Source: a virus (taxonomy: Duplodnaviria > Caudoviricetes). Taken from it: DNA of 55,092 nt. The first letter of the stretch is position 1, and every line of letters starts with the position of its first letter. The notes beneath the pieces were generated by a model. The model was given only the letters and a program-made list of their open reading frames with translations. It ran no database searches and was not told the origin of the DNA. Below are positions 7,847 to 55,092 of this stretch, piece by piece. The DNA lies in IMG/VR virus record IMGVR_UViG_3300037882_003063, positions 1 through 55,092 of that record, one strand, 5' to 3'. The position numbers were made by a program, and so were the translations under genes.

Positions 7847-8536
7847 TTATTCAATAATAAGCAATTCTTGCTTATCAGTTAAAGTTACCACGGGGTAAGT
7901 GTCTAAATCTGGCATTGGTTCGCCAACACCGCCCGTCACCAAAGCGACTTCCTTGGCTGTGTTAGCCTCCACAAAACCGATACCGTCAAGGAGTGGGTAA
8001 GTGATAAGGTAGCGCAAAACAACATGAATCTGCGCCTGATACTCGAAAGAAGACGGGCTTCCAATCAGTTTCGTGACGAAACCACGACTGACACCATCAT
8101 GGATTAGACTTCGCTCCTCACGCTCAGCCCCAAGGACACCCATTAGCTTGCTTTGATTTCTGATGTAAAGACGGTTGACGCTTATTTTGCCGTGGCGTTG
8201 GGCAGCATCACGAGTTTCACGCAACACAAGATGCAGCTTTACCTCATGGTCTACATATTGAAGCATCTGTTCAATTATCAGAGTGCCTAACGTACTCGAG
8301 ACTTCGCGTTTTTCTCTTAAGTCTTTCGCTTGCCCTTCGCTTGGTAAGGGTACTTCAAAGTAATCAATCCCAACCCGAAGCGGGATTTTTTGCCCGTCTT
8401 GGTCAGGGTTCACCATGCCATACGTGACAATACGACCATTAAGCCCGTCTAATAAGTACCTGTCAGGCGGGTCAAACATATAAAGACCAGCCGCATAAAT
8501 ACGACTCTTGATAAAATCTAGGATACTTTCAAACAT
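7847..8536 (-). CDS. Putative tail terminator / neck protein
   Basis: Synteny only: last neck gene before the sheath. Confidence 0.5.
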   Translation of the reverse strand: MFESILDFIKSRIYAAGLYMFDPPDRYLLDGLNGRIVTYGMVNPDQDGQKIPLRVGIDYFEVPLPSEGQAKDLREKREVSSTLGTLIIEQMLQYVDHEVKLHLVLRETRDAAQRHGKISVNRLYIRNQSKLMGVLGAEREERSLIHDGVSRGFVTKLIGSPSSFEYQAQIHVVLRYLITYPLLDGIGFVEANTAKEVALVTGGVGEPMPDLDTYPVVTLTDKQELLIIE

Positions 8537-9131
8537 GACTAAACGCCCTTATGATAGCAGTTTGATACAACCCTCTGAACTCTGGCAAAAGAGCTTTTGC
8601 TACTGGAATTATAATACCTCTTTGCGGGACTCCAATTCCGAATTCATGGGCAAGCATATACGGGAAATTATTAGCGTCATCCGTTCGGGCATCAACACCA
8701 ACATAAATGATTTTTGATGATTGAACAAATTGCCTGAGCGACCCGACTGCTTTACCGCTTGCAATCAGAATCCTACTATCAAGCCCCTCACTGATTTTCT
8801 GGCTTAGGTACTCAGGCGAAAGAGCTTCCCAACCAAGTCTCTGCCCAAGCCAAAACTTTTTTAGATTTTCCTCGTAAAGTTGCGCCGCATCCCTATTAGC
8901 CAAAATAAGGTTAGCGTTCACTCGAGCCTGCAAGCCGTCAAAGTAGCTTGCAAGTTGCGCCCAGTTGCCTGTGAGCCTAGCCTTTGGGTTTGCTCTGAGC
9001 GTTCGGTGTGCATTTCTGATTGAAGCGGCTGTTCTTGCAGCCCAAGGCATTCTTTGGATTGAAACCTTAAACTCGGTTGCTAAGTACAACCCGTCAGGGG
9101 CTTGACGTGTGAACGTTTGCGCGAAGCTCAT
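8529..9131 (-). CDS. Putative neck / tail completion protein (HK97 gp10-like)
   Basis: WEALSPEY, LIASG, HEFG and PQR motifs typical of virion morphogenesis proteins; synteny. Confidence 0.65.
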   Translation of the reverse strand: MSFAQTFTRQAPDGLYLATEFKVSIQRMPWAARTAASIRNAHRTLRANPKARLTGNWAQLASYFDGLQARVNANLILANRDAAQLYEENLKKFWLGQRLGWEALSPEYLSQKISEGLDSRILIASGKAVGSLRQFVQSSKIIYVGVDARTDDANNFPYMLAHEFGIGVPQRGIIIPVAKALLPEFRGLYQTAIIRAFSHV

Positions 9132-9520
9132 AAGTGCCTACCCACGAGACAATCAAACCGAATCACCCCCTCACCTCTAATCAAAGGTTTGACATAAATC
9201 ACGTCAAAGGTTTGATTCACTTGAGGGATATAAAACGACCCGTTAGCAGAGGGCTGACAGTCTTCTGCTAGGACTCTGATAAGTGCTAACGTACCAGTCC
9301 TAAAAGCGCTCGAGTCACCGTAGGCTGTAACCTCTTGAGGGTTTGGTGTCATGTCAATCGCCGCCCTGACGGTCTGACCCGCTAACTCGAGTCCTCCGAC
9401 TGTCTCACCAAAACTATTCACGGTTTCACCGATTCGAGGAGGCTTATAAATCACATCCGCCCCATTGCGCCTAAAGGTGCGTTTTAGGTGAGGCAGTACG
9501 CGGCTAAAATTAGTAACCAT
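9128..9520 (-). CDS. Putative head closure (stopper) protein
   Basis: ~130 aa, beta-rich; second gene of the head-tail cluster. Confidence 0.55.
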   Translation of the reverse strand: MVTNFSRVLPHLKRTFRRNGADVIYKPPRIGETVNSFGETVGGLELAGQTVRAAIDMTPNPQEVTAYGDSSAFRTGTLALIRVLAEDCQPSANGSFYIPQVNQTFDVIYVKPLIRGEGVIRFDCLVGRHL

Positions 9521-9956
9521 ATTCAACCTTGGCGCGACTTGTTGACGGGCTTGAATCTGCTACGGCTCGAGCGGGTTTAGCGGTTAGCTGGGCGAATAGT
9601 TCACACTCCGCGTTTCGGTCAGCTACAAGTGATTTAAGCGCGAAGCTCGAGTTACCAAAAGAACCACTGCCCATGCCGTCTATTGCTGTTGTTGTTGGTG
9701 CGTTCTGCCCGTCTTTTACCATTCGTTTGTACATTTGGCACTTCATACCAGCTATGACCGCCGCTTCTTTTTTTTCCTCGAGTGTTTCAAAGTCCTTATC
9801 TGCAATCGGGTCAAGGGCGGTTACTCTTGACCCGACAATGGTATCCACAGCATCAAACCACTCTTCAAGGGCGGCATTGAATTGTAATTCCTCGAGTCCA
9901 AAATCTTCGGCTTTGAACTCCTTAATCGTTAGGTTTAGGTAGGTGGGCAAGGTCAT
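9510..9956 (-). CDS. Putative head-tail adaptor
   Basis: First neck gene; TACAAT 5 nt upstream of ATG and no SD (near-leaderless). Confidence 0.55.
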   Translation of the reverse strand: MTLPTYLNLTIKEFKAEDFGLEELQFNAALEEWFDAVDTIVGSRVTALDPIADKDFETLEEKKEAAVIAGMKCQMYKRMVKDGQNAPTTTAIDGMGSGSFGNSSFALKSLVADRNAECELFAQLTAKPARAVADSSPSTSRAKVEYGY

Positions 9957-9981
9957 GCCTAATTGTAGCGCGTTTTAAGGC

Positions 9982-10015
9982 AAAACAAAACCCGCTCGAG
10001 GGTTAAGCGGGTTTT
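9982..10015 (-). terminator. Intrinsic terminator closing island A left operon
   Basis: AAAACCCGCT / AGCGGGTTTT stem with T-rich flanks. Confidence 0.75.
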
Positions 10016-11080: not shown

Positions 11081-11110
11081 GGTAAAACTCCTTTTTGTTT
11101 CGTGACGAAA

Positions 11111-11139
11111 CCTGTGATAACCCGCACAGGCAACGGGGC
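11111..11139 (-). other. Intergenic pseudoknot-like element, copy 1
   Basis: GCCCCG-ttg-CCTGTG-CGGG-ttat-CACAGG; 11088-11137 matches 33449-33498 (inverted) at 49/50 nt. Confidence 0.6.
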
Positions 11140-12311: not shown

Positions 12312-12313
12312 AT

Positions 12314-12602
12314 GTGCTACCTCCTTGGTAGTGAGTGCATAGTATCGTGCATTTTGGAGTTGTACTAGGGACATTTATCCCATACCTAATTTGACCTGCT
12401 TCTATGGGTTCAAAGGGTCAAGGGTAGTGCCTTTATACGCACCGTGAGCGCTTTTAAGCCTGCTTTGGGTCGTTCTGTGGCTCGAGTTACCAGAGCGCTA
12501 TATATAAGGGATTCTAGGCGATTCTAGGAGTCGGGACATTTATCACTGGTATACCTTTCTTGTGTATCGTTATGATGCACTCACTACCAAAGGAGGTAGC
12601 AC
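12314..12602. promoter_or_regulatory. Bidirectional promoter cassette A
   Basis: Inverted arms 12314-12340 and 12575-12602; leftward TAGTAC-17-TACTAT, rightward TATGAT; GGGACATTTATC boxes at 12368 and 12533. Confidence 0.85.
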
Positions 12603-12605
12603 CCC

Positions 12606-14674: not shown

Positions 14675-14689
14675 TGTTTCGTCACGAAA

Positions 14690-15823
14690 TTAAGGTGTTT
14701 GGTATGGGATGTTAAACACAAAAACGTTTTCTGGGTTAAGGATGACTGGCAAGGTTGTAGCCCAACCAGAAAGCTCGACCCGTGGCGGTTTGGTTTGAAA
14801 GGATTCTGCAAGCGTAACGATTTTACTTGTGCTTGCACCAGCAGGGCGACCAATGGCGGTATACCCAAGGGTGTCGTCTGGAGTGACAAAATCTTCGCCA
14901 TCGCCCAAGTCAATTCGTTCACTTCGCCCTGTCTCGCAAACAATCACGAAAGCAGTGTCACGCATAAAGCGTTTAGTGCCAACGTCTTGACGGTAGGTGA
15001 GGTTGTACTCGATGATTGGGGGCAAGCCTTCCTGAGTCATGATGTTATTCAATCGGGCGGCGCTTAGGTTCGCTTGGCTTTGAACCAACGTACCAGCGTT
15101 CACAAGAGAAATGTTGTTGACTCGAGCCTGAACCTTTGGGTGCTTTCGCAAAATTGACGTAATGCGGTTACTCGTGAAGATTCGACTTGGAATTAAGCCC
15201 TTGTCTCGCAAGAAGTCAACCGCATCAAAAATGTCTTGCAATGGGTCGAGGGTCGGGTCAAACCAACCATCAGGGACAGCAACACTACCCGATGGAATGG
15301 TGACACGATGCCCTGACGGATTCGAGTAAACAACAGTATCAAGAATACCCATGTCGGTTGTACGGGTGACTTGGGCATCACATATAGCTTCCCAACGCAT
15401 ACGCTCCATTTTTTCACGGAGGGCAAGGTTTACGGTGACATTAAAGAATGAGGCTAAGTTCACTCGAGCCAAATCTGGTAAATCTTGGTCAAGAGTCTCG
15501 AGCAAGGCATCATAATTTTCTGCTGACATTTCAGAGCCAACATCAATATGCCCAAGCTCGACCAACATTGAACCCGTGCGAATGCCTTCTTTTAACTGCA
15601 CAGGGCTGTAACGAGTACCATCATTTGCAATGATGGTGAGGTATTGCACACCATTTTCACGGTAGATGTTACCCTGCTTTGCCGTGGTGGGTTTTTCTGG
15701 CAGGATGGTAGCCCCAAGGTATTGACGGTTTGCATCACCGAATTGAACCCTTGGGCTGTTGGCAAGGTCAACGAAAGTACCATCATTCACTAACTCATCA
15801 ACTAACTGAGCGATATTCAGCAT
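14690..15823 (-). CDS. Major capsid protein (lambda E-like)
   Basis: 377 aa after scaffold and decoration genes; ERMRWEAI, DPLQDI and LPVILNPENV motifs. Confidence 0.88.
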   Translation of the reverse strand: MLNIAQLVDELVNDGTFVDLANSPRVQFGDANRQYLGATILPEKPTTAKQGNIYRENGVQYLTIIANDGTRYSPVQLKEGIRTGSMLVELGHIDVGSEMSAENYDALLETLDQDLPDLARVNLASFFNVTVNLALREKMERMRWEAICDAQVTRTTDMGILDTVVYSNPSGHRVTIPSGSVAVPDGWFDPTLDPLQDIFDAVDFLRDKGLIPSRIFTSNRITSILRKHPKVQARVNNISLVNAGTLVQSQANLSAARLNNIMTQEGLPPIIEYNLTYRQDVGTKRFMRDTAFVIVCETGRSERIDLGDGEDFVTPDDTLGYTAIGRPAGASTSKIVTLAESFQTKPPRVELSGWATTLPVILNPENVFVFNIPYQTP

Positions 15824-18744: not shown

Positions 18745-18774
18745 ATGATGATTGTACTTGTTTCGTGACGAAAT

Positions 18775-18828
18775 AAAAATACCCGTCAATTAAGACGGGC
18801 TGTTGAAGTGAGCTACACCTCGAAACGA
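18775..18828 (-). ncRNA. Candidate ~55-nt small RNA
   Basis: TTGTGT-17-TACAAT with extended TG (18861-18833); GAGGTG/CACTTC hairpin; terminator GCCCGTC/GACGGGT + ATTTTT; no ORF. Confidence 0.4.
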
Positions 18829-18852
18829 GTGCATTGTAACAAGTAGACGCTT

Positions 18853-19115: not shown

Positions 19116-19523
19116 TTAGCGAAGCGGCGCTCTTTGCACCTTGTAGCGGTGAGGGCGTAAGATTAGCAACTCGAGAAGAAAATCTTGGTCGTGACTCGAG
19201 GTGTCGAATTTCATGTTTTTTGACAACAACTCTTGGGGCTTATTGTTTAAGGAAAAATGGCTTCTGAAAGCATCCATCTTATCGGGTGTGGAAGGTAGCT
19301 CGAGCATTCTACCCCTCGAGTAACTTCTTGCCGCTTCTGAGATTGTGGTCTTGATTAGTTCAATCAGTTTAGGATGCCATTCTTTGTAGTAAAAGGCAGG
19401 GCTTACGGCTTCTCTGAAAACACGTTCGCGTAATTCAGGCGGGTAGCCTGAATGGTTTATGTCAAGCACATAGGCTAAGTGGTGAGGGGCTACACAAAAC
19501 AGCGTTATCTTGAATTCATTCAT
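19116..19523 (-). CDS. Hypothetical protein
   Basis: Start at 19523 (GGCGGT RBS), overlapping the upstream stop. Confidence 0.6.
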   Translation of the reverse strand: MNEFKITLFCVAPHHLAYVLDINHSGYPPELRERVFREAVSPAFYYKEWHPKLIELIKTTISEAARSYSRGRMLELPSTPDKMDAFRSHFSLNNKPQELLSKNMKFDTSSHDQDFLLELLILRPHRYKVQRAPLR

Positions 19524-19749
19524 TTTGCTTACCGCCTTTGTTGAATTGAACTCGAGCCATCCACTTGAAAAAGGCATCACGGGGTAGGCTGACCGATAGC
19601 TTCAAAGTGTCTTGTTTTGTGAAGTGGCTAACGTTGAAGCCCTTGGCTTGTTTCGTGACGAAACTACCAGCAAGCGAGTGGGTGTAATTGAGTTTTGATT
19701 CAACAAACTCAGGTCTTAAGTAGGAACGAAGGGGCGGCATATTTTTCAT
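19516..19749 (-). CDS. Hypothetical protein (possible RHH-like C-terminus)
   Basis: GAGG RBS; LKLSVSLPRDAF motif. Confidence 0.5.
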   Translation of the reverse strand: MKNMPPLRSYLRPEFVESKLNYTHSLAGSFVTKQAKGFNVSHFTKQDTLKLSVSLPRDAFFKWMARVQFNKGGKQNE

Positions 19750-19952: not shown

Positions 19953-20292
19953 CTTTTGATTCTATTCGTCAGGCAAGGGCGACACTGCCATGTATCGGCT
20001 TTCGTTTAATGTGTCCTTTTTGACGGCTCGAGTCATCTCACCGTGCAATGGTGCTACACATCACGCGCCCGTGATAAGAGTGTATCCACGGCGATACTCA
20101 CGGCTTTAAGGTTCGTGACCTCCTCGAGCTATTTTCAAACCGCTCTGGTTTAATGCGCTTCTCAGCCCCGTAGCATTCGTCGGAGTAAAACGGTTTCGTG
20201 ACGAAACCCAAGTCAATATACACCAACCTCGAGTCTTGGGCTATACCCTAGCGTTCGCTGTAGTGGCTTTTAAGGTGTCTCGAGAGTGCGCC

Positions 20293-20330
20293 AAAGAAAA
20301 AGACCCTAAGCAGCGACTCTTAGGGTCTTA
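20293..20330 (-). terminator. Terminator after the secreted-protein gene
   Basis: AAGACCCTAAG / CTTAGGGTCTT stem plus T run; stem resembles the one at 14066. Confidence 0.8.
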
Positions 20331-20346
20331 AAAACGATTGTAGAGG

Positions 20347-24715: not shown

Positions 24716-25016
24716 TTTTCGCCTCCCGTTTCGTGACGAAACTTTCTTTGACTTTCGCGTTAAACCTAACGCCGCCGTTATCGGCTTCGCATGTGATGAT
24801 AACCGCATAATCAAGAAACGAAAACGTGACGGTTGCACAAGAGGGCTGAATCAGGTTTATACCTTGCTTGTTTGCTCCATCTCGAAGCTGTGAAGCGGCT
24901 TTCAGGGTTAGGTGAAGGGCATCAGAAACCTCAACTTGTGGTAAGCCTTGGTCTCTGAGCGCGGTTAAGGCAAGCTCTAAACTCGAGCCTTTAAGTGCAA
25001 AAATAATGTTATTCAT
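24702..25016 (-). CDS. Hypothetical protein
   Basis: GAGGA RBS. Confidence 0.65.
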   Translation of the reverse strand: MNNIIFALKGSSLELALTALRDQGLPQVEVSDALHLTLKAASQLRDGANKQGINLIQPSCATVTFSFLDYAVIITCEADNGGVRFNAKVKESFVTKREAKNATT

Positions 25017-25477: not shown

Positions 25478-25480
25478 GGT

Positions 25481-25758: not shown

Positions 25759-25759
25759 C

Positions 25760-26744: not shown

Positions 26745-27252
26745 AAAATTCGTTCGTGAAGAACTGGCTCACGCCCTGACTCCTAATACTTCGCTCGAGT
26801 TGTACCCATCAGGCGGTTTGTGGTACGTCTGCGATAACGCCCAAAGGCGTTTAACTCTTGTGTCGGGTTCTCTTCGTGACTGCTATCATTTTCTTTGTGG
26901 TTACGCCACGGGTATGCCCAAAGTTAAAAGAGAAGAAGATGAGCAAAGGAATCTTTTACTTCTTTTAATGCCACGGGTTTTGGTTAGGTCGGAGCATGGT
27001 GAAAGCATGAAACTCTTAAATGCTGCAACTGCCGCCCTCTGGTTCGGTTCGGATAGCACCGATGTATTTTTGCAGCCTCTTAAAAATATGGGTGAGTATA
27101 TAAAAATAAAAGGCTTGATTCAATACGAAATTGAGTTAGGTGCATACCCCGCCTACCCTCACCATGATTTTATTCGTTGCGGCAAAGACACAACGAAAGA
27201 GCAACGCTTAGCCCGACTCGAGTACATTCTAAGTAAATACGCCGTTTCGTGA
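26731..27252 (+). CDS. Hypothetical protein
   Basis: AAGGA RBS; the stop codon lies inside a 15-bp palindrome copy. Confidence 0.7.
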   Translation: MKITEKFVREELAHALTPNTSLELYPSGGLWYVCDNAQRRLTLVSGSLRDCYHFLCGYATGMPKVKREEDEQRNLLLLLMPRVLVRSEHGESMKLLNAATAALWFGSDSTDVFLQPLKNMGEYIKIKGLIQYEIELGAYPAYPHHDFIRCGKDTTKEQRLARLEYILSKYAVS

Positions 27253-27264
27253 CGAAACAAAAAC

Positions 27265-30109: not shown

Positions 30110-30177
30110 AGAAACCTGTTTCGTGACGAAACAAAAAAACACCAAAGCATAAAGCTCTGGTGTCTACTTGAAAAAAA

Positions 30178-32580: not shown

Positions 32581-32582
32581 AT

Positions 32583-32871: not shown

Positions 32872-32874
32872 CCA

Positions 32875-33447: not shown

Positions 33448-33475
33448 GCCCGTTACCTGTGCGGGTTATCACAGG
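33448..33475 (+). other. Intergenic pseudoknot-like element, copy 4
   Basis: GCCCG-tta-CCTGTG-CGGGT-tat-CACAGG, then the 15-bp palindrome and AAGGAG. Confidence 0.6.
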
Positions 33476-33504
33476 TTTCGTCACGAAACAAAAAGGAGCA
33501 ACTT

Positions 33505-36601: not shown

Positions 36602-37784
36602 TGTCTTCACCAGTAGCTTCTGACTCGAAGGGCATAGGGTCAATCATTTCCCAGTCGCCTATGTCTTCCCATCCCTGCGTTATCATGTACTCCTTGACCT
36701 TAACGTATTCGGCTTTGACATAACCATGTTGCTTCGCGTCACGTTGGGGCAAGTTGTCATCAATTCGGCAAAGTAGCGCAAACAGGCGGTCATCCATGCC
36801 TGTTGGTTGAATTCTTTTTTCGTCTGCTGTGTCGGGTTCACCGATTTGTTGGGGCGCAGTCGAAGCCAACAATTCACCAAGTTCACCGTTTCGTGACGAA
36901 ACGTACATCTTGGACAGGAGGGCAATGTCAATATCGGCAAGAACGCATTGCAAGAATCCCATGCAGTCGGTATAGCTGACCTCCTCACCGATATGAGAGG
37001 CAATGTTACGCACGGCATAATCAAGGGCTTCCTCGAATTGACCCGCGTCTTTACCTGAGATTTGGATTTTCAACGGGCGCATATCCGACATTGGTTTTTC
37101 TTTGCCATGGCTCGAGCTTGACGACCCTGAAAGCGTTTTTAAGCGGTCTTTATAACTTTGCTCTGCGATTTGGTTGACGACCTCACGCACGTCAAAGGGT
37201 TGGCGCTGTTCTGCCTTCACACGGGCAAGACCAGCTAAGGCATTCAAAACTTCGCCTTGGGTGACGTTTTTTTCAATCAAGAATTCTTTTGCTTCTTCGG
37301 GGCTACCGATAGCGGCAAAAACAAACCTATATGTGTTTAGCGCCTTACTGATTTTTGACTTATGCCACGAGTCACGAGATTCGGGGCGCTTGTAGAGGAC
37401 TTCGTAAACGCCGCCTTTTTGCTGCACAGAATCATCTTCGTGCAAGCGACCAATAAAACCAGCTTGGTCAAGGAAAAGATGGTCGGTTTTTACCGTGACC
37501 TTATCCAGTGCTTTAAGAGTCTTTTTGGCTTCTGCGCTTAAACCCTTTTCAATGTCAGGGTCAACATCAGGGCGCTGCTCGTCGTCACCTTCGTCGTTAG
37601 CCTGTTCATTAGGCTGGACTTCGCTCTGACCGCCTTGAGGCGCGTACACCGCCAAAGCAAGCGGGTTATCAGTACCCAACTCGGGCATATGTTCGACCTT
37701 GGCTTTTTTGGCTTTGGTCTTCGCCACTGGGACGGCTTGAGGTTCTGGCTCGAGGGCTTCTTTCTTAGGACGTTTGGTTAGCAT
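36591..37784 (-). CDS. Hypothetical 397-aa protein, possible DNA-binding
   Basis: AAGGAG RBS; own promoter TTGACA-17-TATGGT (37853-37825); helical SKISKALNTYR segment. Confidence 0.7.
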   Translation of the reverse strand: MLTKRPKKEALEPEPQAVPVAKTKAKKAKVEHMPELGTDNPLALAVYAPQGGQSEVQPNEQANDEGDDEQRPDVDPDIEKGLSAEAKKTLKALDKVTVKTDHLFLDQAGFIGRLHEDDSVQQKGGVYEVLYKRPESRDSWHKSKISKALNTYRFVFAAIGSPEEAKEFLIEKNVTQGEVLNALAGLARVKAEQRQPFDVREVVNQIAEQSYKDRLKTLSGSSSSSHGKEKPMSDMRPLKIQISGKDAGQFEEALDYAVRNIASHIGEEVSYTDCMGFLQCVLADIDIALLSKMYVSSRNGELGELLASTAPQQIGEPDTADEKRIQPTGMDDRLFALLCRIDDNLPQRDAKQHGYVKAEYVKVKEYMITQGWEDIGDWEMIDPMPFESEATGEDNEL

Positions 37785-37871
37785 GGTTTTGCTCCTTTTG
37801 GTGCGTTTTTTGTACTACTCGTGAACCATATCATGCAAAAAGAGATTTGTCAAGCGTTTCGTGACGAAACG

Positions 37872-39185: not shown

Positions 39186-40105
39186 TACGATAACCTCTGC
39201 CATTCACTGGCTTCTTGAAGGGTAAAAATTGCCTTGGGCGGGTCTTGTTTGTATGCCGACTTAAACGCCTCAACATCAATATGTATCTCGTTGCCAACGC
39301 TATCCACTTTTATAATCTCGACCCGCCTACCCCCTCGAGTTAAATAAACACCACACAAAAGCAATGAATCGTTTCGTTTCGTGACGAAACTACTTTTCCA
39401 AGACGGGAAGCGGTCAATAATTAGGGCGGGAGTTACAAAGCCAAGTTTGATACCTTGCTCCTCAAGAATCCATTTGAAGTAGGGCTTTATATCCTCCTCC
39501 TTGCAACCTATTTCAATGAGGGTTTTAACGGTCTTGCCGATACGGGCTTTCATGTTAGGCGGGACTTGTGCATCAGGTGTTTTATAAAGCTCGAGCCAAA
39601 TTGCATCGTAAATTCTTTGGTGAAGACTTACGGGCTTCGTTTCGTCCTCGACGAAAGAATTTTCTAAATCAGTATTTTCTAAATCAGTATTTACTAGCGT
39701 CTCGTTTACCGAAGTCGGTTTACCCGAAGTCGGTTTACCCGAAGTCGGTTTACCCGAAGTCGGTTTAACGCTACTTTTAGGGGGTAATATGCTCACTTCT
39801 CTGACTATGGTTTCATAGCCAAGCATCTTGCCATTACTCGAGCGCCGCTCACCCCTTGAGGCATAGCCAAACTCGATTAACTCATTCATGGCGTTACTCA
39901 CACCCGTATAACCATCACCGCGAGCCTTAGAATCGGTTTTTCTATCACGGGCTATCGCTCTAAGGTTTACCTCCCAGTGGTCAGGTTTGGATAGCAACCA
40001 AAGCAGCAACCCAAGGGCAGAAAAGCTAAGTCTGCTATCCGTGATTGCGCTATTGCTCATGACTGTGTAAGTGTCTTTGCCGCGCTCTTTCCTTAAAATA
40101 CCCAT
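39185..40105 (-). CDS. Replication initiator (HTH, lambda O-like arrangement)
   Basis: YTVMSN..ITDSRLSFSALGLLLWLLSKPDHW; internal iterons; upstream of dnaB. Confidence 0.85.
   Translation of the reverse strand: MGILRKERGKDTYTVMSNSAITDSRLSFSALGLLLWLLSKPDHWEVNLRAIARDRKTDSKARGDGYTGVSNAMNELIEFGYASRGERRSSNGKMLGYETIVREVSILPPKSSVKPTSGKPTSGKPTSGKPTSVNETLVNTDLENTDLENSFVEDETKPVSLHQRIYDAIWLELYKTPDAQVPPNMKARIGKTVKTLIEIGCKEEDIKPYFKWILEEQGIKLGFVTPALIIDRFPSWKSSFVTKRNDSLLLCGVYLTRGGRRVEIIKVDSVGNEIHIDVEAFKSAYKQDPPKAIFTLQEASEWQRLS
39660..39767. repeat. Putative replication origin: four 15-bp iterons plus two AT-rich 15-mers
   Basis: CCGAAGTCGGTTTA(C) x4 (39709-39767) and TTTTCTAAATCAGTA x2 (39660-39689) inside the initiator gene. 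Confidence 0.75.
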
Positions 40106-42154: not shown

Positions 42155-42170
42155 ATTTCGTGACGAAACT

Positions 42171-43780: not shown

Positions 43781-43811
43781 AAACTCCTTTTTGTTTCGTG
43801 ACGAAACGTGA

Positions 43812-48045: not shown

Positions 48046-48530
48046 TACTCCTTTTTGGCTAATCCTTCTTTGATTAGTCCAAGCCAGTCTATATTAAACT
48101 GCCCTCGAGATAAATGCTCTGCTTTTAGCAGAGACCTACTCGAGTTGGTGAGTGAACGGGCAAACACAGCATATTTGATATGCCACACAAAAACATAACC
48201 AGCTACCATCAACGGGCTTGTGTCAGTAGCAAACTGCTCAGTTTTATAAACTTCGTTCAGGGTGTTGAATTCGTCTTCGCCCCACTTCTCGACTTCGTAA
48301 CCAACGACCCGACAGGCTTTGACGGCAAGCTCTTTGCAAAACTCAAGCCCCTCCTTTGGCGTGTCTGCGAACCTTAAACCATAAAGCAAAATTTCAATCG
48401 GTAGGCTCATCACCTCACTGACCTCAAGGAGTGGCATACCCTGAGCGATTTCTGCAATCGCTTTTTCGCTAGGCTCGAGTCCAGCCCCGCAAATCCATTC
48501 GGCGGGAACGTTAGTCCAATTTATCCGCAT
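48045..48530 (-). CDS. Hypothetical protein (possible fibre chaperone)
   Basis: GGAGG RBS; TAATG-coupled to the fibre gene. Confidence 0.55.
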   Translation of the reverse strand: MRINWTNVPAEWICGAGLEPSEKAIAEIAQGMPLLEVSEVMSLPIEILLYGLRFADTPKEGLEFCKELAVKACRVVGYEVEKWGEDEFNTLNEVYKTEQFATDTSPLMVAGYVFVWHIKYAVFARSLTNSSRSLLKAEHLSRGQFNIDWLGLIKEGLAKKE

Positions 48531-49885
48531 TAGTAAACACCTCCGATTACATTTGTAAAGCCTTGGTCGGGTGCGCCCGTTGGCGCGTAGGGGTTGAAGT
48601 CCTGAGCTACCATACGCCAAGTTGATTTTACGTTTATCGGAACGTTTTCTGGTCGGGCGTTATCGCTAAGAATCGCTAACCAAAGGCGTTTAGAGGTTGT
48701 ACCGCTAGGCACATCAATAACGAATGCCCCGCCAAAAGTACGAACGCTGTCATTTGCGTTTACTTCCTCGCTCGAGTTTGATGCTTGTGTGCCAATCAAG
48801 GTATAGTTTGGCGCTGACGGGCTACCGCCAACCGCCGCAAATGTCTGACCAATGTTGTTGGCACTTGAGAATTGACCTGATGTTGTTGCCCCGACAGCAT
48901 CACCCAAAATCACGGCTGCACTTACCACGGGTGAATAGCCGCTTTTGCCGCTATCGTCAATGCAGACAACTGATAGCGCCCCTAAGGTGAAAAGCATTTT
49001 TTTGCCAGCAAAACCCGTGAGGTTTATATCCCTATCGGCTCTAAGGTAGGTCGTTGCACCAAGGGCGCGGTAAACATGAAACTCAAAGTAACTGCCGTCA
49101 CCAGCCTCTAAGTCGTCAAGCCTGCTTTCATGGTCAGAGATTGACGCGGCTTGGTCTAGGTTTTCGGCTTCAATTGCTGTCACCGCGTCATTAAGGGCGT
49201 TTATCGAAAGCTGTTTTGCCGCAAGGTCAGCCGTGTGTCCTGCTACGGTTGCCTTGACCGCGTTTATCTCGACCTTAAGGGCTTCAATCTGAATCGCCGC
49301 AACAGCATAAGTGCGTTGAGTATTCTCAGTGGTTTGTATGTCGGCAACGGTGACAGCGCCCATACCCGCGTACATCCTCACGACTCCGATTCTGCAATCG
49401 TTCGTTGTTGGTGTGGGTGTCACGACTAAACTTACTTCGTCCCTTTGAATCCAATGCAGATTGTAAGGAGTGAAGGCAGGGTCAAAATCAGGGTTCTGAC
49501 CGCCGCCGCTCAGTAGGGCGGGTTCTGCATCAACCAAAATAAACGCTTCGGGGCTAACGTTGTAGCTTGGTCGAGCCACAATGTAAATATCTTGAGTGCC
49601 AACCAGTGGCACATAGGTCGAAACGTCAAGAGTGACCACGGCTCGATTTTCGAGGTGTCTACCAAGTTTTAGGGTTTCGTCACGAAACACACCGCGCCCC
49701 GCCGTGACTCTGACGTTAAGGCTTGGCACTGTGTTTTGTAGCAACTCGAGTCCAGTTAAAACGCCACTGCTGATGCTGTAATCAAAAAGAATCTTCTCGA
49801 GGTTCGCCCGAGGGACTTCTTGCAACATCCGATTCCAGTGTTCATCTTCTGGATTCCAATAATAACCAAAGTTTGGGTATTCCAT
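48530..49885 (-). CDS. Tail fibre protein
   Basis: Follows the baseplate I-like gene; central coiled coil; beta-rich C-terminus. Confidence 0.7.
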   Translation of the reverse strand: MEYPNFGYYWNPEDEHWNRMLQEVPRANLEKILFDYSISSGVLTGLELLQNTVPSLNVRVTAGRGVFRDETLKLGRHLENRAVVTLDVSTYVPLVGTQDIYIVARPSYNVSPEAFILVDAEPALLSGGGQNPDFDPAFTPYNLHWIQRDEVSLVVTPTPTTNDCRIGVVRMYAGMGAVTVADIQTTENTQRTYAVAAIQIEALKVEINAVKATVAGHTADLAAKQLSINALNDAVTAIEAENLDQAASISDHESRLDDLEAGDGSYFEFHVYRALGATTYLRADRDINLTGFAGKKMLFTLGALSVVCIDDSGKSGYSPVVSAAVILGDAVGATTSGQFSSANNIGQTFAAVGGSPSAPNYTLIGTQASNSSEEVNANDSVRTFGGAFVIDVPSGTTSKRLWLAILSDNARPENVPINVKSTWRMVAQDFNPYAPTGAPDQGFTNVIGGVY

Positions 49886-49894: not shown

Positions 49895-50494
49895 CTATGG
49901 CTCGATTAAATCATAAATCATAAAGGGCGGCAATGCTGTGTTTAAGATACCAATAAGTTTTTCTTTGATACTGGCATCCCAAACAATGCCGTTTAGATTT
50001 GTAACCCGAATAATCAGGTACTCACGAGGGAACGAACGGTAAATTCGCCGCCGCCCGATTCGTGAAGTCCCTATCCTAAAGCCGTTTGTAATTTCACCGC
50101 GCCAATTGATACTAATTTCAAGCGAAGTGACAGCAGTGCCGTTTCTGAAATACTCCCAAACAATGTCCTCGACCACGCCCCTATTACTGAATTCTGCAAC
50201 CGACGATTTGCCATAATGCTTGTACCATCTTGGGATTTTTTTTAAGATGATTCTTTGGTTCACGCTCGACAAGGTTTCTGGTTGCCCTACGCGCCAGTTA
50301 AGAGTGTGAACCAAAAACACAAGCGCGTTTGTTGGGGCTAGGTCAGGGTCAGCAAGGCGCAAAACGGCTCTTTGGTCGAGCTTGTTAGCGGCTTGCTCGA
50401 GCATTGCGTTTACACCAACAAAAAGAAGTCTAGTGAACGGGCTTCTTTTTGCGCTAGGCGGGAGGAGTTGCATCATATCGCTAATTTCCGACAC
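49895..50494 (-). CDS. Baseplate wedge protein (P2 gpI-like)
   Basis: DPDLAP..L..L...W; QR.ILK.I..WYK..G motifs. Confidence 0.75.
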   Translation of the reverse strand: MSEISDMMQLLPPSAKRSPFTRLLFVGVNAMLEQAANKLDQRAVLRLADPDLAPTNALVFLVHTLNWRVGQPETLSSVNQRIILKKIPRWYKHYGKSSVAEFSNRGVVEDIVWEYFRNGTAVTSLEISINWRGEITNGFRIGTSRIGRRRIYRSFPREYLIIRVTNLNGIVWDASIKEKLIGILNTALPPFMIYDLIEP

Positions 50495-51698
50495 GGTACG
50501 CCTCCACGGTAAAGCTAATCGTTCCTGCCCTGACTATTTCATCAATTTCAAGGTCGTCAGTTGGCGTGATGGTAAGGCTTTCTCTTATAACCCTGTCTAC
50601 ATCAAATTCGTAAAGCGACCCAAGGAAACCAATTAAGTATTCCTCCTCGAGCCTAACGCCAATTGTGTAGCCCTTGCCTAACACCGTCTTGCTCGAGTCT
50701 GGATTAGGCTTGAAAAACCGCCCTCCTGTGAAGGCATCAAAGAATAGGGTCGTGTTGCTTTCGGCTGATGTTTTCACTGTAGCATTGACCGCATTAGAAG
50801 TTGCGATAATCACACCCGATACGTTCACGGCTCGAGGGCGAACACCAATCACGAATAAACCCGCATCCGTTGGGCTTGAACCTTTCAGGTGAAAGTAAGA
50901 CTTGAGGTAAAGCTGAACAGCCAAGGCATCTAAGACGCTCTGAGAAGGCGCTAGACCCGCCTCAGTCATGCAAACTAGAGTCATACACCCTGCTTTGCGT
51001 TTGAAGCCGCCTGTGGTGGGTTTTACGCCACCGTATAGCACGACCTTGGCAATGCTTGGATATGCTTCTGCCTCACTGATGTACTGTTGGGGCGTATGCA
51101 ACGACTCATTGTAAAGGCTCGAGGGTACGCGGTCACGCCATTGCTCGAGTGTTTCCCCGTCAGTGCCGCCCGTCATTGGTGTGATGTTGTAAGCCGCGTA
51201 AACGTTGCCTGTAGTCACAGGAACGGTATTACGGACACCCCTGACCGACCCGATTGTTTCAGTGTTTGACCCTGTGCCTGCAAATTCGGCTTCGTATTCA
51301 ATCGGATGCACCCCCGCCGTTGCAAAAGTGACGGTGTTACGAGCTTTGAAAACAATTCCGTTGACTTCATCTGCTACCTGATGCCCTTGAGGGATTACTG
51401 TTCCCGCGTCAACAGAAACGCCAACCATGCCCCTTGATTTTTGCGGCGGCGTTGTCTCTTGACCAATGAGTTTGCCAAGTAACAAAATCAGGCTTTCACC
51501 AAAGAGGCGAATACTACGCGAATAAAGATGGAATTGAATCCGCCCTAGCACAACACGAATTGCAGCTATGAGCGGGTCAGCATTAGCAACGTTCGTGTAT
51601 TTGCCCTCACTGCCAGCAACAACAGCAACCTTTGAGGCTTCCACTTCGTCGTCAAGGTTAAAATCTGAGTAAAGCTCTGGGAATTCAGGTGATGCCAT
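50481..51698 (-). CDS. Baseplate J-like protein
   Basis: GTVIPQG, AEFAGTGSN, GGTDGETLEQWRDR motifs. Confidence 0.9.
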   Translation of the reverse strand: MASPEFPELYSDFNLDDEVEASKVAVVAGSEGKYTNVANADPLIAAIRVVLGRIQFHLYSRSIRLFGESLILLLGKLIGQETTPPQKSRGMVGVSVDAGTVIPQGHQVADEVNGIVFKARNTVTFATAGVHPIEYEAEFAGTGSNTETIGSVRGVRNTVPVTTGNVYAAYNITPMTGGTDGETLEQWRDRVPSSLYNESLHTPQQYISEAEAYPSIAKVVLYGGVKPTTGGFKRKAGCMTLVCMTEAGLAPSQSVLDALAVQLYLKSYFHLKGSSPTDAGLFVIGVRPRAVNVSGVIIATSNAVNATVKTSAESNTTLFFDAFTGGRFFKPNPDSSKTVLGKGYTIGVRLEEEYLIGFLGSLYEFDVDRVIRESLTITPTDDLEIDEIVRAGTISFTVEAYRVGN

Positions 51699-53421
51699 AT
51701 TGCCCCCTTATAAAGTCGTCGAGTGGTAAACGGATACTCTCACCCGAATCAAGCGGGATTGAAATACCCGTTTCTGAATCAGTGTACCCGATGTTGATGT
51801 AAAGAGTATCGCCCTCAGCAGACACACTAACGCCGTCTCTGGTCAGGATGCCAAAAGCCGTTATCTTAACCTCATCAACCACAATGGGCGGTTGTTGATT
51901 TGTAAACCAATTTGCAGGGTCATTCAAAACGGTTTTGATTCGTGACGAAACAGCAGTATAAGCAGTCTCATTCATTGGTGTTCTGAGCAGCACTGAAAGC
52001 TCGAGGAGGTCAATCAGAATGCAACCTATGGTTTGCTCGAGCGCCGCTCTGCCCTCGAGTATTACGGGTCTGCCGCCTTGGAATTCAAAGCCAAGAGTTC
52101 GCAAAGTAAACGCCGCATCTTTGGGCTGAATCGGTATGATAGTTGGCGCTACTGTACCATCCGAGATTCGAGCCGCAAAGATTTTGTAGTCAAACGCGCC
52201 CGTGAAGTGTTGGAATCGCACAATACCATCATCAAGCGCCCCCGCTTCTCTTAATGAAGTAACGCCATAGGGAAAAGTTTGATACCAGAGAAAGTCTTGA
52301 CTTGGTACTGTGCTGTACATCTGGTCGTAGTTGGACTCGTTGTGAGCGTACCCGTACACAAGGTCGCCCTCGCTTGCCTCGCATGAATTTGACGCAATTA
52401 CCGAAAAGGCGTTCACCCCCGTAACGGGTTCTGACCACGAAACCGTTAAGTCTTCGAGAACTGCGCCGCGCACGATAAAACCGACCAACATAGGGGAGTC
52501 GTAAACAGAGTTGGTGTCGCCTCGAGTGAATTTGTACACAGGGGGTTCACTGCTTGTTATGGTTCTTGCCCAAAACCTTTGGAATCCAACAGCGCCTATC
52601 GAAACGTCTTTGGCTGGACTTAATGCTGTAAATTGTCCTGAGATTCTTGGGAGCATCGAATTGCCCCCGTAGTCAGAGCCTTCATGGGAACTGACAATGA
52701 TAATATCGCCCACTGTCACCACGTCTTCTAGGTACGTGGGTATTACAAGGTCTAGGTTTCTTTGCTCAAGCCCGAAGGCATCGAGGTAAAAGAATTGTAG
52801 GGTAAGAGGATAATCACTGCCGTTCGCAGAAAAGAATTCGACGACTTGGATACTATGGGTTAAAATTAAATTTGCTACGAAGGGCGTAACACCAACGGTC
52901 ACAACAACAGTATTTGATGTTTGGTCATAGTACAGTTGAATTTCTGTACCTGTTGATTCTGCGCTAGTATCCACAGCTAAAAGGCTTGTGTAGGAAAACC
53001 CGTCATGTTCCAAGACTTCGATTGCATTGCGGTTTATCAAAATCTTTATAGAGTCATCCCCTACAACTTGGGATAATGTTCTTAAGCGCAAACCGACATC
53101 ACCACCAACATACTCGGGCAAGTAAAAAAGTGTGCCTACTTCATCCAGTGGCTCGGAGTAAGACCTAGTGAGCCTACCGCCCTGATACCCATACTGGGCA
53201 AAATTCATCCAAGTATACGAGCCGTTAGTCTGGATAACAGTGTTGATGGCGTTACTTGGTGATTTTATCCAACCCTTTGAACCATCCACAAAGTCGTAAC
53301 CTACGGGGTAGTTTGTCCCGTCACTGCTAAAATTCGAGGAGTCATCAGCGCCTCCAACCACTAAATTACTTGTGAATAACCTAATGTCATACACGGGGTC
53401 AACAACTATTTCAAGTGCCAT
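51685..53421 (-). CDS. Putative gp25/W-like wedge protein with large N-terminal beta domains
   Basis: Lies immediately before baseplate J; the last ~140 aa resemble gp25 (LEQTIGCIL...LYINIGY). Confidence 0.55.
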   Translation of the reverse strand: MALEIVVDPVYDIRLFTSNLVVGGADDSSNFSSDGTNYPVGYDFVDGSKGWIKSPSNAINTVIQTNGSYTWMNFAQYGYQGGRLTRSYSEPLDEVGTLFYLPEYVGGDVGLRLRTLSQVVGDDSIKILINRNAIEVLEHDGFSYTSLLAVDTSAESTGTEIQLYYDQTSNTVVVTVGVTPFVANLILTHSIQVVEFFSANGSDYPLTLQFFYLDAFGLEQRNLDLVIPTYLEDVVTVGDIIIVSSHEGSDYGGNSMLPRISGQFTALSPAKDVSIGAVGFQRFWARTITSSEPPVYKFTRGDTNSVYDSPMLVGFIVRGAVLEDLTVSWSEPVTGVNAFSVIASNSCEASEGDLVYGYAHNESNYDQMYSTVPSQDFLWYQTFPYGVTSLREAGALDDGIVRFQHFTGAFDYKIFAARISDGTVAPTIIPIQPKDAAFTLRTLGFEFQGGRPVILEGRAALEQTIGCILIDLLELSVLLRTPMNETAYTAVSSRIKTVLNDPANWFTNQQPPIVVDEVKITAFGILTRDGVSVSAEGDTLYINIGYTDSETGISIPLDSGESIRLPLDDFIRGQYGIT

Positions 53422-53423
53422 TT

Positions 53424-53879
53424 TTACACCTCATTTATAAACGCGGATAACCTTAACAGGGCTGACTCTGCGTTTGCTTGGGCTTGCTCGAGAATGACAA
53501 TACCACCCGCCGCCGTTATTGCCGACAAGGGTAAGTTTGGAATTGCTAGGGCAGATGACACCAATTTTGTTGTTGAAGTCAAAACCTGAATCGCTAAAAT
53601 CGGCGTAATTGCACTCAAGGCAAAACGTAATTCATTCACCTCTGGTAAATCCTGCCACTGGGCAAGTTGAGTTATCAGACTCGATAACTGAGCGGCTGTG
53701 TTCGTTAAAAACTCGAGTTCTTTTGTGATGCCAGAAGTGAGTGCAATAAAGGGTTCTGCCTCTGCCCTCATTGCGTCACTTGCCTTAAACGTTTTCCTCA
53801 CAACGGTTGTGATACTCCCAATATGGGGCGTGATAGCGGCTCGAGCCTGAGCCTTGGCGGCTTCGGTAATATCGCTCAT
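53424..53879 (-). CDS. Hypothetical helical protein (baseplate region)
   Basis: ATGA-coupled. Confidence 0.6.
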   Translation of the reverse strand: MSDITEAAKAQARAAITPHIGSITTVVRKTFKASDAMRAEAEPFIALTSGITKELEFLTNTAAQLSSLITQLAQWQDLPEVNELRFALSAITPILAIQVLTSTTKLVSSALAIPNLPLSAITAAGGIVILEQAQANAESALLRLSAFINEV

Positions 53880-54283
53880 ATAACTTCACCTTTGGCGCTT
53901 ATGGGAATGCTAATCGGCACGGGCAGGGGTGTAACACCAGCAGCGAGGATTGAAGCGGCTACAAGTTGGGTGAGTTGAATACTACCCGTGATTTTTACTG
54001 TTGCCCCTTTCCTAGCGGGTTCTGAATCGTTCTCAGATAATGGTTGTCCCTCGAGTGGAAAAAATTCCATCACCCTGAATCGGTCTAGGCTTTGCCCGTA
54101 ACCAGTATCCCAAACCGCCACCTCTTGACCAACTTGGACACCTGACCCAAAAGTGCCATACCATGCGCCCAAGCCGATAACTAGGTACTCCTCCAAGCTA
54201 CCGCCTGACGTGTTGAAAGCCACTTTGATAGGTCTTAAAACGTCTTGCCTTATTTCACTGATAACGCCCAAATACATATCCAT
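53876..54283 (-). CDS. Putative baseplate spike (gpV-like OB fold)
   Basis: Follows the hub; GVI...IKV...VGQEVAV pattern; GGAG RBS at 54283. Confidence 0.6.
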   Translation of the reverse strand: MDMYLGVISEIRQDVLRPIKVAFNTSGGSLEEYLVIGLGAWYGTFGSGVQVGQEVAVWDTGYGQSLDRFRVMEFFPLEGQPLSENDSEPARKGATVKITGSIQLTQLVAASILAAGVTPLPVPISIPISAKGEVI

Positions 54284-54297
54284 AAAACTCCGTTTCG

Positions 54298-55092
54298 TCA
54301 CGAAACAATTGTGTTTCGACACAGGGTAATGCTCATGTCAAACCCGCTTTCGGCGCTTATGTTGCCGCCTATCTCACGAATAATATACAGCCCTTTAACC
54401 TTATCGGGTACTCGAGCGCCTTGGAGTTGAATCTCTTCGCCCACGAAAATGCTTGGTAGCCCGTGCATACTGACCGTCACGACCTGAAACTTCAACTGTT
54501 GCAAAGCAAGGGACTCTAAGGCTTTACGTTTAGCGTCAAGGGTCGAGGTTGAGCCGCCCGTAACAATGCGTTTGACTTTACCAGAGCCGTAACCGTTAGC
54601 GATTAGCTCACTTACTTTTTTAGAAGCGAAGTTTGCCGCTCCATCAGCAACGCCCGTGCTTGGCTTGGTCGGCGCTTGTGTGGCTGTGACGGTTGCACTT
54701 ACGCCACTTGATACAAGGTTGCCCCCAACGTTTTGAGTGACCGTTTTTGGTTTTGGTGTATCAGTAACCCTCACTTCGTCAGCTAAGTCCTCTGGTTTTG
54801 CAATAACAGTGAATCGCCTACCGCCCTCGATTCCAGTTACAACGACCTCACTGGGAATTTCATACAAGGAGCTTCTGACCGAAAGTTTGCCTACGTTAGA
54901 AGCGACATTTTCAATCAAGCCACTTACATTCTTAGCCCGAAACTCACCGTAAACCAATAGGGCGCGTGGTCGTTTGCCTATTTCAATACCAGCACCAATA
55001 AAAATTTCTGACCCGTCTCGAGTTTCCGTTACAACGTAACCAATTTCTTTGGCAAGTTTAACTAAAAAAGTCCAGTCGTCTTGCCCTGTTTG
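54298..55092 (-). CDS. Baseplate hub protein, 3' part (continues from 1299..1)
   Basis: C-terminal GLPSIFVGEEIQL...GLYII..I...GF pattern; same frame across the overlap. Confidence 0.85.
   Translation of the reverse strand, partial: QTGQDDWTFLVKLAKEIGYVVTETRDGSEIFIGAGIEIGKRPRALLVYGEFRAKNVSGLIENVASNVGKLSVRSSLYEIPSEVVVTGIEGGRRFTVIAKPEDLADEVRVTDTPKPKTVTQNVGGNLVSSGVSATVTATQAPTKPSTGVADGAANFASKKVSELIANGYGSGKVKRIVTGGSTSTLDAKRKALESLALQQLKFQVVTVSMHGLPSIFVGEEIQLQGARVPDKVKGLYIIREIGGNISAESGFDMSITLCRNTIVS

Follow-up and report, generated by a model that had tools for sequence, protein, structure and literature searches.

Why does a 15-bp palindrome recur at nearly regular intervals along a phage genome, at gene boundaries as well as deep inside genes? 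The question is raised by IMGVR_UViG_3300037882_003063, a Caudoviricetes record in IMG/VR that was analysed over its whole length (55,092 bp, hereafter the window; CheckV completeness 100%) and in which the palindrome GTTTCGTSACGAAAC forms an array. A first-pass annotation, made from the sequence alone, had counted 18 or more copies, about one every 3 kb, and had read them as a parS-like or stoperator-like network bound by a protein. We find 19 copies at a mean spacing of 2.9 kb, the one at 3469 being newly added, and these copies are selected at the nucleotide level, prefer intergenic and start-proximal positions, are evenly spaced and carry a central base that is polar with respect to transcription. 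What stands of the earlier interpretation is a real, selected array that resembles the recognition site of one factor; the parS reading, and the naming of a "ParB-N" and an "RHH" protein as its partners, are not supported.

Copy number and geometry of the motif

The exact motif occurs 14 times in the window and not once in 100 dinucleotide shuffles, and when up to two mismatches are allowed there are 19 matches, all of them at zero or one mismatch (shuffles: mean 0.12, maximum 1), which places the count far above background. The mismatch spectrum runs from 14 words at zero and five at one, through none at two, to one at three and seven at four; since no word has two mismatches and the single three-mismatch word is at chance level, the copies are 19 discrete sites. 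The outermost base pair accounts for three of the five mismatches, which leaves the motif a core of 13 bp.

The palindrome has a 7-1-7 layout and, folded as a hairpin (-3.4 kcal/mol), gives a 6-bp stem with a 3-nucleotide (nt) loop. Its half-site GTTTCGT is found 26 and 20 times on the two strands, mostly as the arms of the 19 copies, with the remainder near the expected 4.5; half-sites by themselves show no enrichment beyond the full sites. The palindrome stops at the motif edge, where the flanking bases are complementary in 7 of the 19 copies by our own count, and an A-run occupies one flank in 8 of the 19. Three copies share longer flanks that clearly come from a cassette duplication. There are no Rfam matches on either strand of the window at gathering score, and the exact motif strings are absent from the literature searched.

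Placement at gene boundaries

The setting is a genome in which the minus strand carries nearly all open reading frames (ORFs), the plus strand holds three small islands, and both the GC content (46-50% throughout) and the sign of the GC skew are constant. A 99-bp direct terminal repeat indicates a circular assembly. All results on gene context rest on our own heuristic gene calls, and the individual copies are set out in Table 1.

Intergenic gaps of at least 15 bp add up to 4,056 nt, or 7.4% of the genome, and contain 10 of the 19 copies (P=2e-7). Two further copies straddle gene ends, giving 12 boundary copies, of which seven end 8-16 nt ahead of a start codon (P=0.0015). The adjacency to ribosome-binding sites and start codons that had been proposed for the copies at 11097, 30118, 33475, 43793 and 54292 is borne out, and those at 24728 and 18760 also qualify. 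A module consisting of the motif followed by AAAAAGGAG is common to three of these start-proximal copies (11097, 33475 and 43793).

For five copies a strong hairpin with a T-run is no more than 6 nt away; three of them follow it and two precede it. The five include the copies at 14676, 27244 and 42155, whose position beside terminators had already been recognised, to which 18760 and 30118 are now added. The hairpin and T-run that follow the copy at 42155, read by eye, close the late operon upstream of an early promoter at 42117-42089. The proposed association with promoters survives in part: the copy at 37856 abuts the -35 element of the near-consensus promoter TTGACA-17-TATGGT downstream of the DnaB gene, the copy at 18760 overlaps a possible TACAAT promoter (the TACAAT itself lying 3 nt downstream), and the copy at 20193 has no -10 element at usable spacing.

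Nucleotide-level selection inside genes

Seven of the 19 copies lie deep in ORFs, and all three reading frames are used. Six of them (8068, 19650, 36888, 39376, 49674 and 51937) had been described as kept inside coding regions; a seventh copy so described, at 24728, lies only in the last 26 nt of its ORF. The peptides said to be forced by the motif, FVTK, VSSRN and FRHET or FRDET, are indeed present, and within our gene calls the exact motif encodes every occurrence of FVTK (4/4), VSSRN (1/1) and FR[HD]E (2/2), one FR[HD]E case, at 30118, being in a frame that we judge not to be a real gene.

Two of the coding copies can be aligned with homologues. In a 229-aa tail-region protein the copy at 8068 covers the conserved RGF[VSE]T[RK] segment, and in a 578-aa protein the copy at 51937 covers SSRIK where two homologues have AARIK; the homologues show no five-residue insertion in either case, so the motif has been overwritten on existing codons and not inserted. 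The single mismatch of the copy at 51937 is the base that keeps an isoleucine, which the two homologues carry too. At three gene ends (27244, 54292 and 14676) the motif is interlocked with a stop codon. The codons that make up the motif are not rare, and for this reason an argument from codon cost fails. Selection at these sites is on DNA or RNA rather than on protein.

Even spacing and a polar central base

With a coefficient of variation of 0.48, the 19 spacings are more even than those of random points (0.93; P=0.0003), and neighbouring copies are never more than 5.9 kb apart, where a mean of 10.3 kb would be expected for the largest gap (P=0.007). Without the coding copies, stretches of 10.5 and 11.8 kb in the densely packed tail and baseplate modules would be free of the motif, and four of the seven coding copies sit in precisely these stretches. 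Randomly placed coding copies equal the observed evenness in 0.85% of trials (P=0.0085), and this filling of the gaps left by the boundary copies indicates that coverage of the whole genome is under selection.

Only the central base makes the motif asymmetric. Coding leaves this base unconstrained at 14 sites (nine non-coding and five at synonymous third positions), and at 13 of these 14 the sense strand carries C (P=0.0009; 11 of 12 with the duplicated cassette collapsed), including all five synonymous valine or alanine codons. The sole exception among the unconstrained sites is the copy at 14676, with a sense-strand G; the copy at 49674 also has G at its centre, at a position where exchanging G for C would change the amino acid (Asp or His). 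The background leans slightly the opposite way: outside the motif, the minus strand has 57 GTCAC and 74 GTGAC, and valine codons GTC and GTG are used about equally. The earlier remark that most copies read GTCAC on the sense strand agrees with 15 of the 18 sites for which a sense strand is defined, and the copy at 33475 is oriented with the transcription of its plus-strand island. Since a symmetric dimer on duplex DNA cannot sense the central base, a strand-specific process (transcription, the transcript or replication) is involved, and the polarity speaks against a simple, symmetric role of the duplex, of the kind that a centromere has.

Candidate binders

For this and all other statements on gene function, 80 distinct ORFs were compared with Pfam, PHROGs or both. 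Four phage proteins had been put forward as binders of the motif, and of these only the XRE protein (41806-42081), still a candidate binder, is confirmed as the helix-turn-helix protein it was said to be. Against sequences of the Protein Data Bank (PDB) it gives only matches of E>0.3, and the motif copy closest to its gene has its centre about 80 bp ahead of the start, off the promoter. The gene probably starts at 42081 from a leaderless-type promoter: TTGACT-17-TATGAT lies 7 nt ahead of ATG 42081 (42128-42081), and the protein is on this account probably 91 aa and not 105.

The supposed "RHH" protein (30554) has no match in Pfam, PHROGs, NCBIfam or PDB sequences (phmmer), and its single-sequence model is of low confidence, with a predicted local distance difference test score (pLDDT) of 65.8. 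In the stretch 30102-30560 the real gene is more likely the ORF at 30178-30492 than the one that fills the stretch; it is lysine-rich and has a weak H1/HC2-like match (E 0.0049). With this gene call, the terminator at 30165-30137 and the motif copy at 30118 fall in intergenic DNA. Five tandem 15-bp repeats occupy 30407-30481 and would probably read KKPAA in the frame of 30178-30492. The 397-aa protein (36591-37784) gave no informative match, including in the ESM Atlas, and so finds no support as a binder; it is without a recognisable fold, and its gene has one motif copy at the -35 element of its promoter and another inside.

For the ORF labelled "ParB-N" (28612), Pfam gives nothing at E<=0.01 and only ParB-like PHROGs are matched. 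The 274-aa product has a GGHQR-type motif and an acidic tail, with no recognisable DNA-binding domain, and its homologues adjoin a PAPS-reductase-type gene in at least 4 of the 15 Riemerella/Bacteroides phage entries listed. The ParB-like and PAPS-reductase-like genes form what we take to be a possible DNA-modification pair. In the search for ParB-like homologues and in the other collections searched, the motif array was seen nowhere but in this phage.

Occurrence in relatives and elsewhere

The phage is remote from those in the collections searched. A megablast search with 20 kb against isolate phages returned nothing, and tblastn with the terminase, DnaB, ParB-like and capsid proteins gave at most 38% identity. 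Among isolate phages the capsid protein matches only six mycobacteriophage records, at 24.9% identity across 61% of its length, and its best relatives among 5.8 billion proteins reach 50% identity. The terminase has matches of at most about 30% over long segments in IMG/VR and the JGI metagenomes, with 50-57% only over 36-58 residues. No IMG/VR relative was retrieved with the portal, the 397-aa protein or a tail-protein alignment, and a 23-nt leader sequence had no IMG/VR match. The 75 viral loci found through a capsid alignment share only head genes with this phage, and none of these loci, which extend to 21 kb, holds a comparable palindrome array, the maximum being three copies per locus.

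The exact 15-mer itself is present in 85 viral loci, one copy each, which fall into a few homologous families with common flanks; five whole records likewise contain one copy each. That these single copies share flanks across related contigs points to common descent. The 15-mer also occurs in at least 120 prokaryote loci, and among the matches listed these are single copies except for one locus with two, no record recurring. Across the 205 motif-bearing loci listed, the one encoded relative is a DnaB match at 27%.

Explanations for the array

The reading that we favour, and that could well be correct though it is held tentatively, is that the 19 copies act in cis as the recognition sites of a single sequence-specific factor, which would have a co-transcriptional role and would recognise them in a duplex or a hairpin form. 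The factor would probably be encoded by the phage, and its sites would cover the whole of a genome that is itself transcribed almost entirely one way; because the asymmetric base is oriented with transcription, it would most likely act on elongating transcription complexes or on transcripts. In the first form, a dimer bound to the duplex palindrome would act, where operons and cistrons meet, as a roadblock or insulator with polarity, in the manner of a stoperator. In the second, the sense strand would be recognised once folded into a 6-bp stem and a UCA loop, like nut-type or operator hairpins, and would control read-through, processing or translation of the next cistron. The array, with its selection, placement, evenness and polarity, is what the analysis shows; that a protein binds, which protein this would be and the step that it would control are inferred.

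Several observations weigh against this proposal. No binder emerged among the 80 ORFs scanned, where the only helix-turn-helix proteins are the XRE protein, a clear regulator, and a likely small terminase. No close relative, in which the sites might recur, was found in the collections searched. The overlap of motif and terminator is not significant (six of the ten motif-bearing gaps, among 30 gaps; P=0.07), so that part of the adjacency is crowding. The polarities of transcription and replication are confounded, nearly all genes being on one strand with a GC skew that never switches, and replication thus stays a possible source of the polarity. A symmetric dimer, as supposed in the duplex form, should ignore the orientation of the central base pair. 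As to the RNA form, the hairpin is weak, the variant copies break stem pairs with no compensation, positions 7 and 9 are complementary, as an RNA triloop does not need, and three copies lie just downstream of strong terminators.

A related proposal, possible though on balance unlikely, is that the motif is an evenly spaced, strand-polar hairpin signal that would load or reload a processive machine every ~3 kb along the one-way-read genome. Such a machine might work on the transcript, as an antitermination or anti-Rho factor, or else on the displaced DNA strand, as a factor for priming or loading, and the signal would be written into coding sequence where intergenic space runs out.

Rather less probable is a non-polar organiser of the duplex, modelled on a centromere, KorB sites or nucleoid-occlusion sites, in which a dimer or the loader of a sliding or spreading protein at evenly placed sites would compact, segregate, protect or package the DNA. 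The perfect 7-1-7 symmetry with an outermost pair that is the most tolerant, the even spacing with its gap-filling coding copies, the retention of copies inside ORFs, and the presence of a ParB-like gene and of the lysine-rich H1-like ORF would all suit such an organiser. A symmetric role does not predict the polar centre (13/14), however, nor the way in which 7 of the 12 boundary copies hug start codons; no ParA, canonical ParB helix-turn-helix or parS was found, and the ParB-like homologues are linked to PAPS reductase in at least 4 of the 15 entries listed, with the array not found in the other collections searched.

We give a smaller chance again to a purely RNA-level element, a sense hairpin that would be a translational-repressor operator, or a processing or stability signal, for the next cistron. 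Its polarity with transcription and the seven copies 8-16 nt ahead of a start, three of them in the module with AAAAAGGAG, are what such an element would show. Seven other copies, however, lie deep in ORFs with no start codon downstream, and two lie at 3' ends just ahead of terminators; the stem is weak, its variants are uncompensated, no Rfam family is matched in the window, and even spacing is not what gene-specific operators would predict.

The chance is slighter still that the motif is an initiation signal acting as an extruded single-strand hairpin, either an N4-like promoter for an unrecognised phage-directed polymerase or a lagging-strand priming site every ~3 kb. The motif has a 6-bp stem and a 3-nt loop with a purine at the loop centre on the template strand, and the N4 promoter hairpin also has a loop of 3 nt with a purine in the middle (PMC4496689); the copies are co-oriented and evenly spaced, and several stand where a restart after a terminator would be needed. 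Set against this, neither an RNA polymerase nor a primase gene was found among the 80 ORFs scanned, the template-strand loop is T-G-A and not the G-purine-A of N4, the leaders would be just 4-12 nt, with some sites losing the ribosome-binding site, and two copies lie directly upstream of terminators.

A long shot is that the motif is the site of a host factor, through which the phage would recruit or titrate a host regulator or chromosome organiser. No phage-encoded binder can be assigned, and the 19 sites of each genome, their number raised by replication, would titrate such a factor effectively. The idea of a decoy for a host protein had been raised before and gains nothing from the prokaryote matches: among those listed, the at least 120 loci have one exact 15-mer each, apart from one locus with two. 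The motif is not known to match any established operator.

It is very improbable that the array is a functionless repeat, whether selfish, duplicated or driven by mutation. The three copies whose longer common flanks derive from cassette duplication fit that view, but the two alignable coding copies overlie pre-existing residues without insertion, the mismatch spectrum is bimodal, the spacing is even and the centre polar, and a short-patch repair bias cannot build a 15-mer.

Canonical parS-type sites bound by the ParB-like protein, as in plasmid-prophage partition, are close to refuted, for although the outer GTTTC/GAAAC arms are alike and the window has a ParB-like ORF, an extra base at the centre throws the half-sites out of register, none of the 19 copies comes within 3 mismatches of the canonical 16-bp consensus (parS-like matches at 3 mismatches number 1 in the window against a shuffle mean of 2.43), no ParA was found among the 80 ORFs, the copies are polar, and the ParB-like protein is of the GGHQR type with no recognisable DNA-binding domain.

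Gene content and other repeats of the genome

Among the ORFs scanned, a set of head, tail, replication and recombination functions could be recognised (Table 1). The largest ORFs are the tape measure, a probable tail sheath, the terminase and the portal, the tail sheath being assigned by gene order alone, without a PHROG match. No integrase, no recombinase besides ERF, no ParA, no polymerase, no primase gene and no repressor with a cleavage domain was seen among the 80 ORFs in Pfam and/or PHROGs, and the window contains no transfer RNA genes. A 665-aa gene crosses the circular junction (1-1299 joined to 54298-54993), with its stop codon within the motif copy at 54292.

Table 1. Positions of the motif copies and of recognised genes in the window
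Feature	Position	Strand	Description
Motif copy	3469..3483	-	1 mismatch, sense GTTTCGCCACGAAAC; deep in tape-measure gene 1922-4525(-), frame 1, peptide SFATKL
Motif copy	8068..8082	-	exact; deep in ORF 7847-8536(-), peptide GFVTKL
Motif copy	11097..11111	-	exact, intergenic; order hairpin, motif, AAAAAGGAG; ends 16 nt ahead of ATG 11080
Motif copy	14676..14690	+	1 mismatch; 3 nt ahead of terminator 14672-14648; first sense-strand base is the final base of the capsid gene TAA stop
Motif copy	18760..18774	-	1 mismatch; 6 nt past terminator 18800-18781; 15 nt ahead of likely portal ATG 18744
Motif copy	19650..19664	-	exact; within ORF 19516-19749(-), peptide SFVTKQ
Motif copy	20193..20207	-	exact; in 466-nt non-coding stretch 19881-20346, 93 nt past terminator 20329-20300
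Motif copy	24728..24742	-	exact; final 26 nt of ORF 24702-25016(-), peptide SFVTKR; ends 12 nt ahead of ATG 24715
Motif copy	27244..27258	-	exact; convergent junction; 6 nt past minus-strand terminator 27294-27265; central TGA (plus strand) is the stop codon of plus-strand gene 26695-27252
Motif copy	30118..30132	-	exact; 4 nt past terminator 30165-30137; 8 nt ahead of PAPS-reductase-like ATG 30109
Motif copy	33475..33489	+	exact; within plus-strand gene island; hairpin, motif, AAAAAGGAG; ends 15 nt ahead of ATG 33505
Motif copy	36888..36902	-	exact; deep in 397-aa ORF 36591-37784(-), frame 0, peptide VSSRNG
Motif copy	37856..37870	-	exact; 1 nt past DnaB stop; 2 nt upstream of -35 of promoter-like site 37853-37825
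Motif copy	39376..39390	-	exact; within replication-initiator gene 39185-40105(-), peptide SFVTKR; ~320 bp from iterons
Motif copy	42155..42169	-	1 mismatch; 1 nt past stop of 42171-42479(-); directly ahead of hairpin and T-run
Motif copy	43793..43807	-	exact; followed by AAAAAGGAG; ends 12 nt ahead of ATG 43780
Motif copy	49674..49688	+	exact; deep in ORF 48530-49885(-), frame 2, peptide VFRDET
Motif copy	51937..51951	-	1 mismatch; deep in ORF 51685-53421(-), peptide VSSRIK
Motif copy	54292..54306	+	exact; ends 8 nt ahead of ATG 54283; central TGA (minus strand) is the stop codon of the 665-aa junction-spanning gene
Tape measure	1922-4525	-	
Lambda-E-type capsid protein	14690-15823		
Portal	17134-18789		likely start 18744
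Terminase large subunit	21122-22825		
ParB-like ORF beside PAPS-reductase-like ORF	28612-30109		
DnaB helicase	37872-39203		
Replication initiator	39185-40105	-	encloses four to five 15-bp iterons
ERF recombinase	40875-41894		
XRE helix-turn-helix protein	41806-42081		heads early operon
Baseplate J	50481-51698		
HNH endonuclease			recognised among the ORFs

Several other repeats are distinct from the palindrome. Four to five tandem 15-bp units at 39694-39767, within the replication-initiator gene, are likely the replication origin; the sequence of these iterons differs from that of the motif, and an identity of the two is rejected on this ground. The tape-measure gene contains three 69-bp tandem repeats at 3189-3375.

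A divergent-promoter cassette of ~290 bp is present in three copies (12313-12603, 25480-25759 and 32582-32872) with 72-95% identity across a 199-nt core, and every copy starts one plus-strand gene island and one minus-strand operon. The leaders of the cassettes are inverted and near-identical (a TACAAT-type -10 element, GCACTCACTACCAAAGGAGGTAGCAC and ATG) and are accompanied in each cassette by two GGGACATTTATC repeats. The sequence TANNATGCACTC occurs six times in total, five times within the cassettes and once at 18827-18838, ahead of the portal gene. Since the cassettes have repeats of their own, the palindrome was rejected as their operator. The portal start is also leaderless-looking, with TACAAT 6 nt ahead of ATG 18744 (18774-18742).

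Short-palindrome landscape

The window is also peculiar in its short palindromes. Of the 64 six-base palindromes, 42 are absent, where 10-18 copies of each are expected, and three more occur once; GATC has 2 copies against 143 expected from a Markov model, CCGG, GGCC and GGWCC have none, and CCWGG has 3. CTCGAG, by contrast, has 172 copies against 12 expected, a 14-fold excess that makes it the commonest hexamer of the genome. Its copies are distributed over the reading frames as 71/35/39, with 27 intergenic, and in the capsid gene it overlies existing residues without insertion. No paper in the literature searched pairs CTCGAG with the term "highly iterated palindrome". The purge of palindromes together with the excess of CTCGAG offers a promising model of sequence-level selection on phage DNA.

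A 141-aa ORF at 35203-35628 has a weak match to DUF559 (E 0.01), a family that we take to be Vsr-like, and also matches phrog_503. Should this ORF truly encode a nuclease of short-patch repair, a link with the abundance of CTCGAG might exist, which is speculation. Eight viral stretches of 5-14 kb (contigs of 5-80 kb, GC 0.47-0.49) are similarly poor in six-base palindromes, with 2.6-3.5 per kb against a median of 13.6; they contain no CTCGAG and one motif copy each, with the same flanks, and may share a restriction-rich host range with this phage.

Comparison with known systems

The KorB operator sites of plasmid RK2, which are related to parS, are likewise of odd length around a central G/C, and their distance from promoters varies, some being adjacent and others near or far. 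The present motif resembles these and parS in being a short palindrome, the known sites measuring 13-16 bp, and differs from parS in that it has no match to the consensus, in its polar copies, in a ParB-like gene of the widespread type linked to PAPS reductase, and in a gene content where neither a ParA nor a helix-turn-helix ParB was found among the ORFs scanned.

A stoperator is an asymmetric site of 13 bp to which a temperate phage's immunity repressor binds. The comparison with stoperators, drawn in the first-pass annotation, holds in three respects, namely the dispersed copies, the preference for short intergenic gaps at gene boundaries and an orientation tied to the direction of transcription. 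It fails in others, for the motif here is a palindrome save at its centre, no repressor-integrase module was found among the 80 ORFs, and seven copies lie deep in genes. In the discussion of PMC4351075, the Cluster A stoperators, as in L5, are thought to act on elongation and not on initiation.

The virion RNA polymerase of phage N4 recognises its promoter as a hairpin whose 3-nt loop has a purine at the centre (PMC4496689). The likeness is that of a near-palindrome made polar by a loop base read on one strand, and here the centre of the template strand is G at 15 of 18 sites. The giant virion polymerase and the G-purine-A loop of N4 have no counterpart found in this genome. N4 has only a few hairpin promoters, compared with the 19 copies here.

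The start-associated sequences of Cluster K mycobacteriophages (mentioned in PMC4351075) are likewise a conserved short motif just upstream of many start codons, whereas only 7 of the 19 copies here are start-proximal, the others being at stops, at terminators or deep in ORFs. A paper on the Gp36 repressor of D29 (PMC12266134) concerns direct repeats and was set aside as having no bearing on the palindrome.

The nearest published analogue is the repeat of the Cluster O mycobacteriophages, Corndog and its relatives. According to PMC4351075, a 17-bp repeat of 7-3-7 layout, its arms invariant, occurs 34 times in these phages, about one third of the copies being in coding regions and most of the sites not at promoters. 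Integrase and parAB are lacking there, a protein with a ParB-like domain was judged irrelevant, a dimer is predicted by the authors as the binder, and the function was stated to be unknown in 2015. Both systems thus show invariant arms around a short centre, tens of copies genome-wide with a share in coding sequence (7 of 19 here), and neither shows an integrase or parAB (here among the 80 ORFs scanned). They differ in sequence and geometry (7-3-7 there, 6-3-6 or 7-1-7 here) and in their unrelated phages and hosts; there is little orientation with transcription there and a polar centre at 13 of 14 sites here, and copies are denser at one end there and evenly spaced here (PMC4351075).

The array is a variant of a known, unexplained class of phage repeat arrays. 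Dispersed high-copy palindromes have been described in phages before, and the present case is unusually clean owing to its all-or-none sites, its selection at the nucleotide level over coding constraint, its evenness and its one polar base, a base that separates strand-specific models from symmetric duplex models. If a factor does act on elongation or is reloaded genome-wide at these sites, the array would represent a further regulatory principle for phages that transcribe 50 kb one way.

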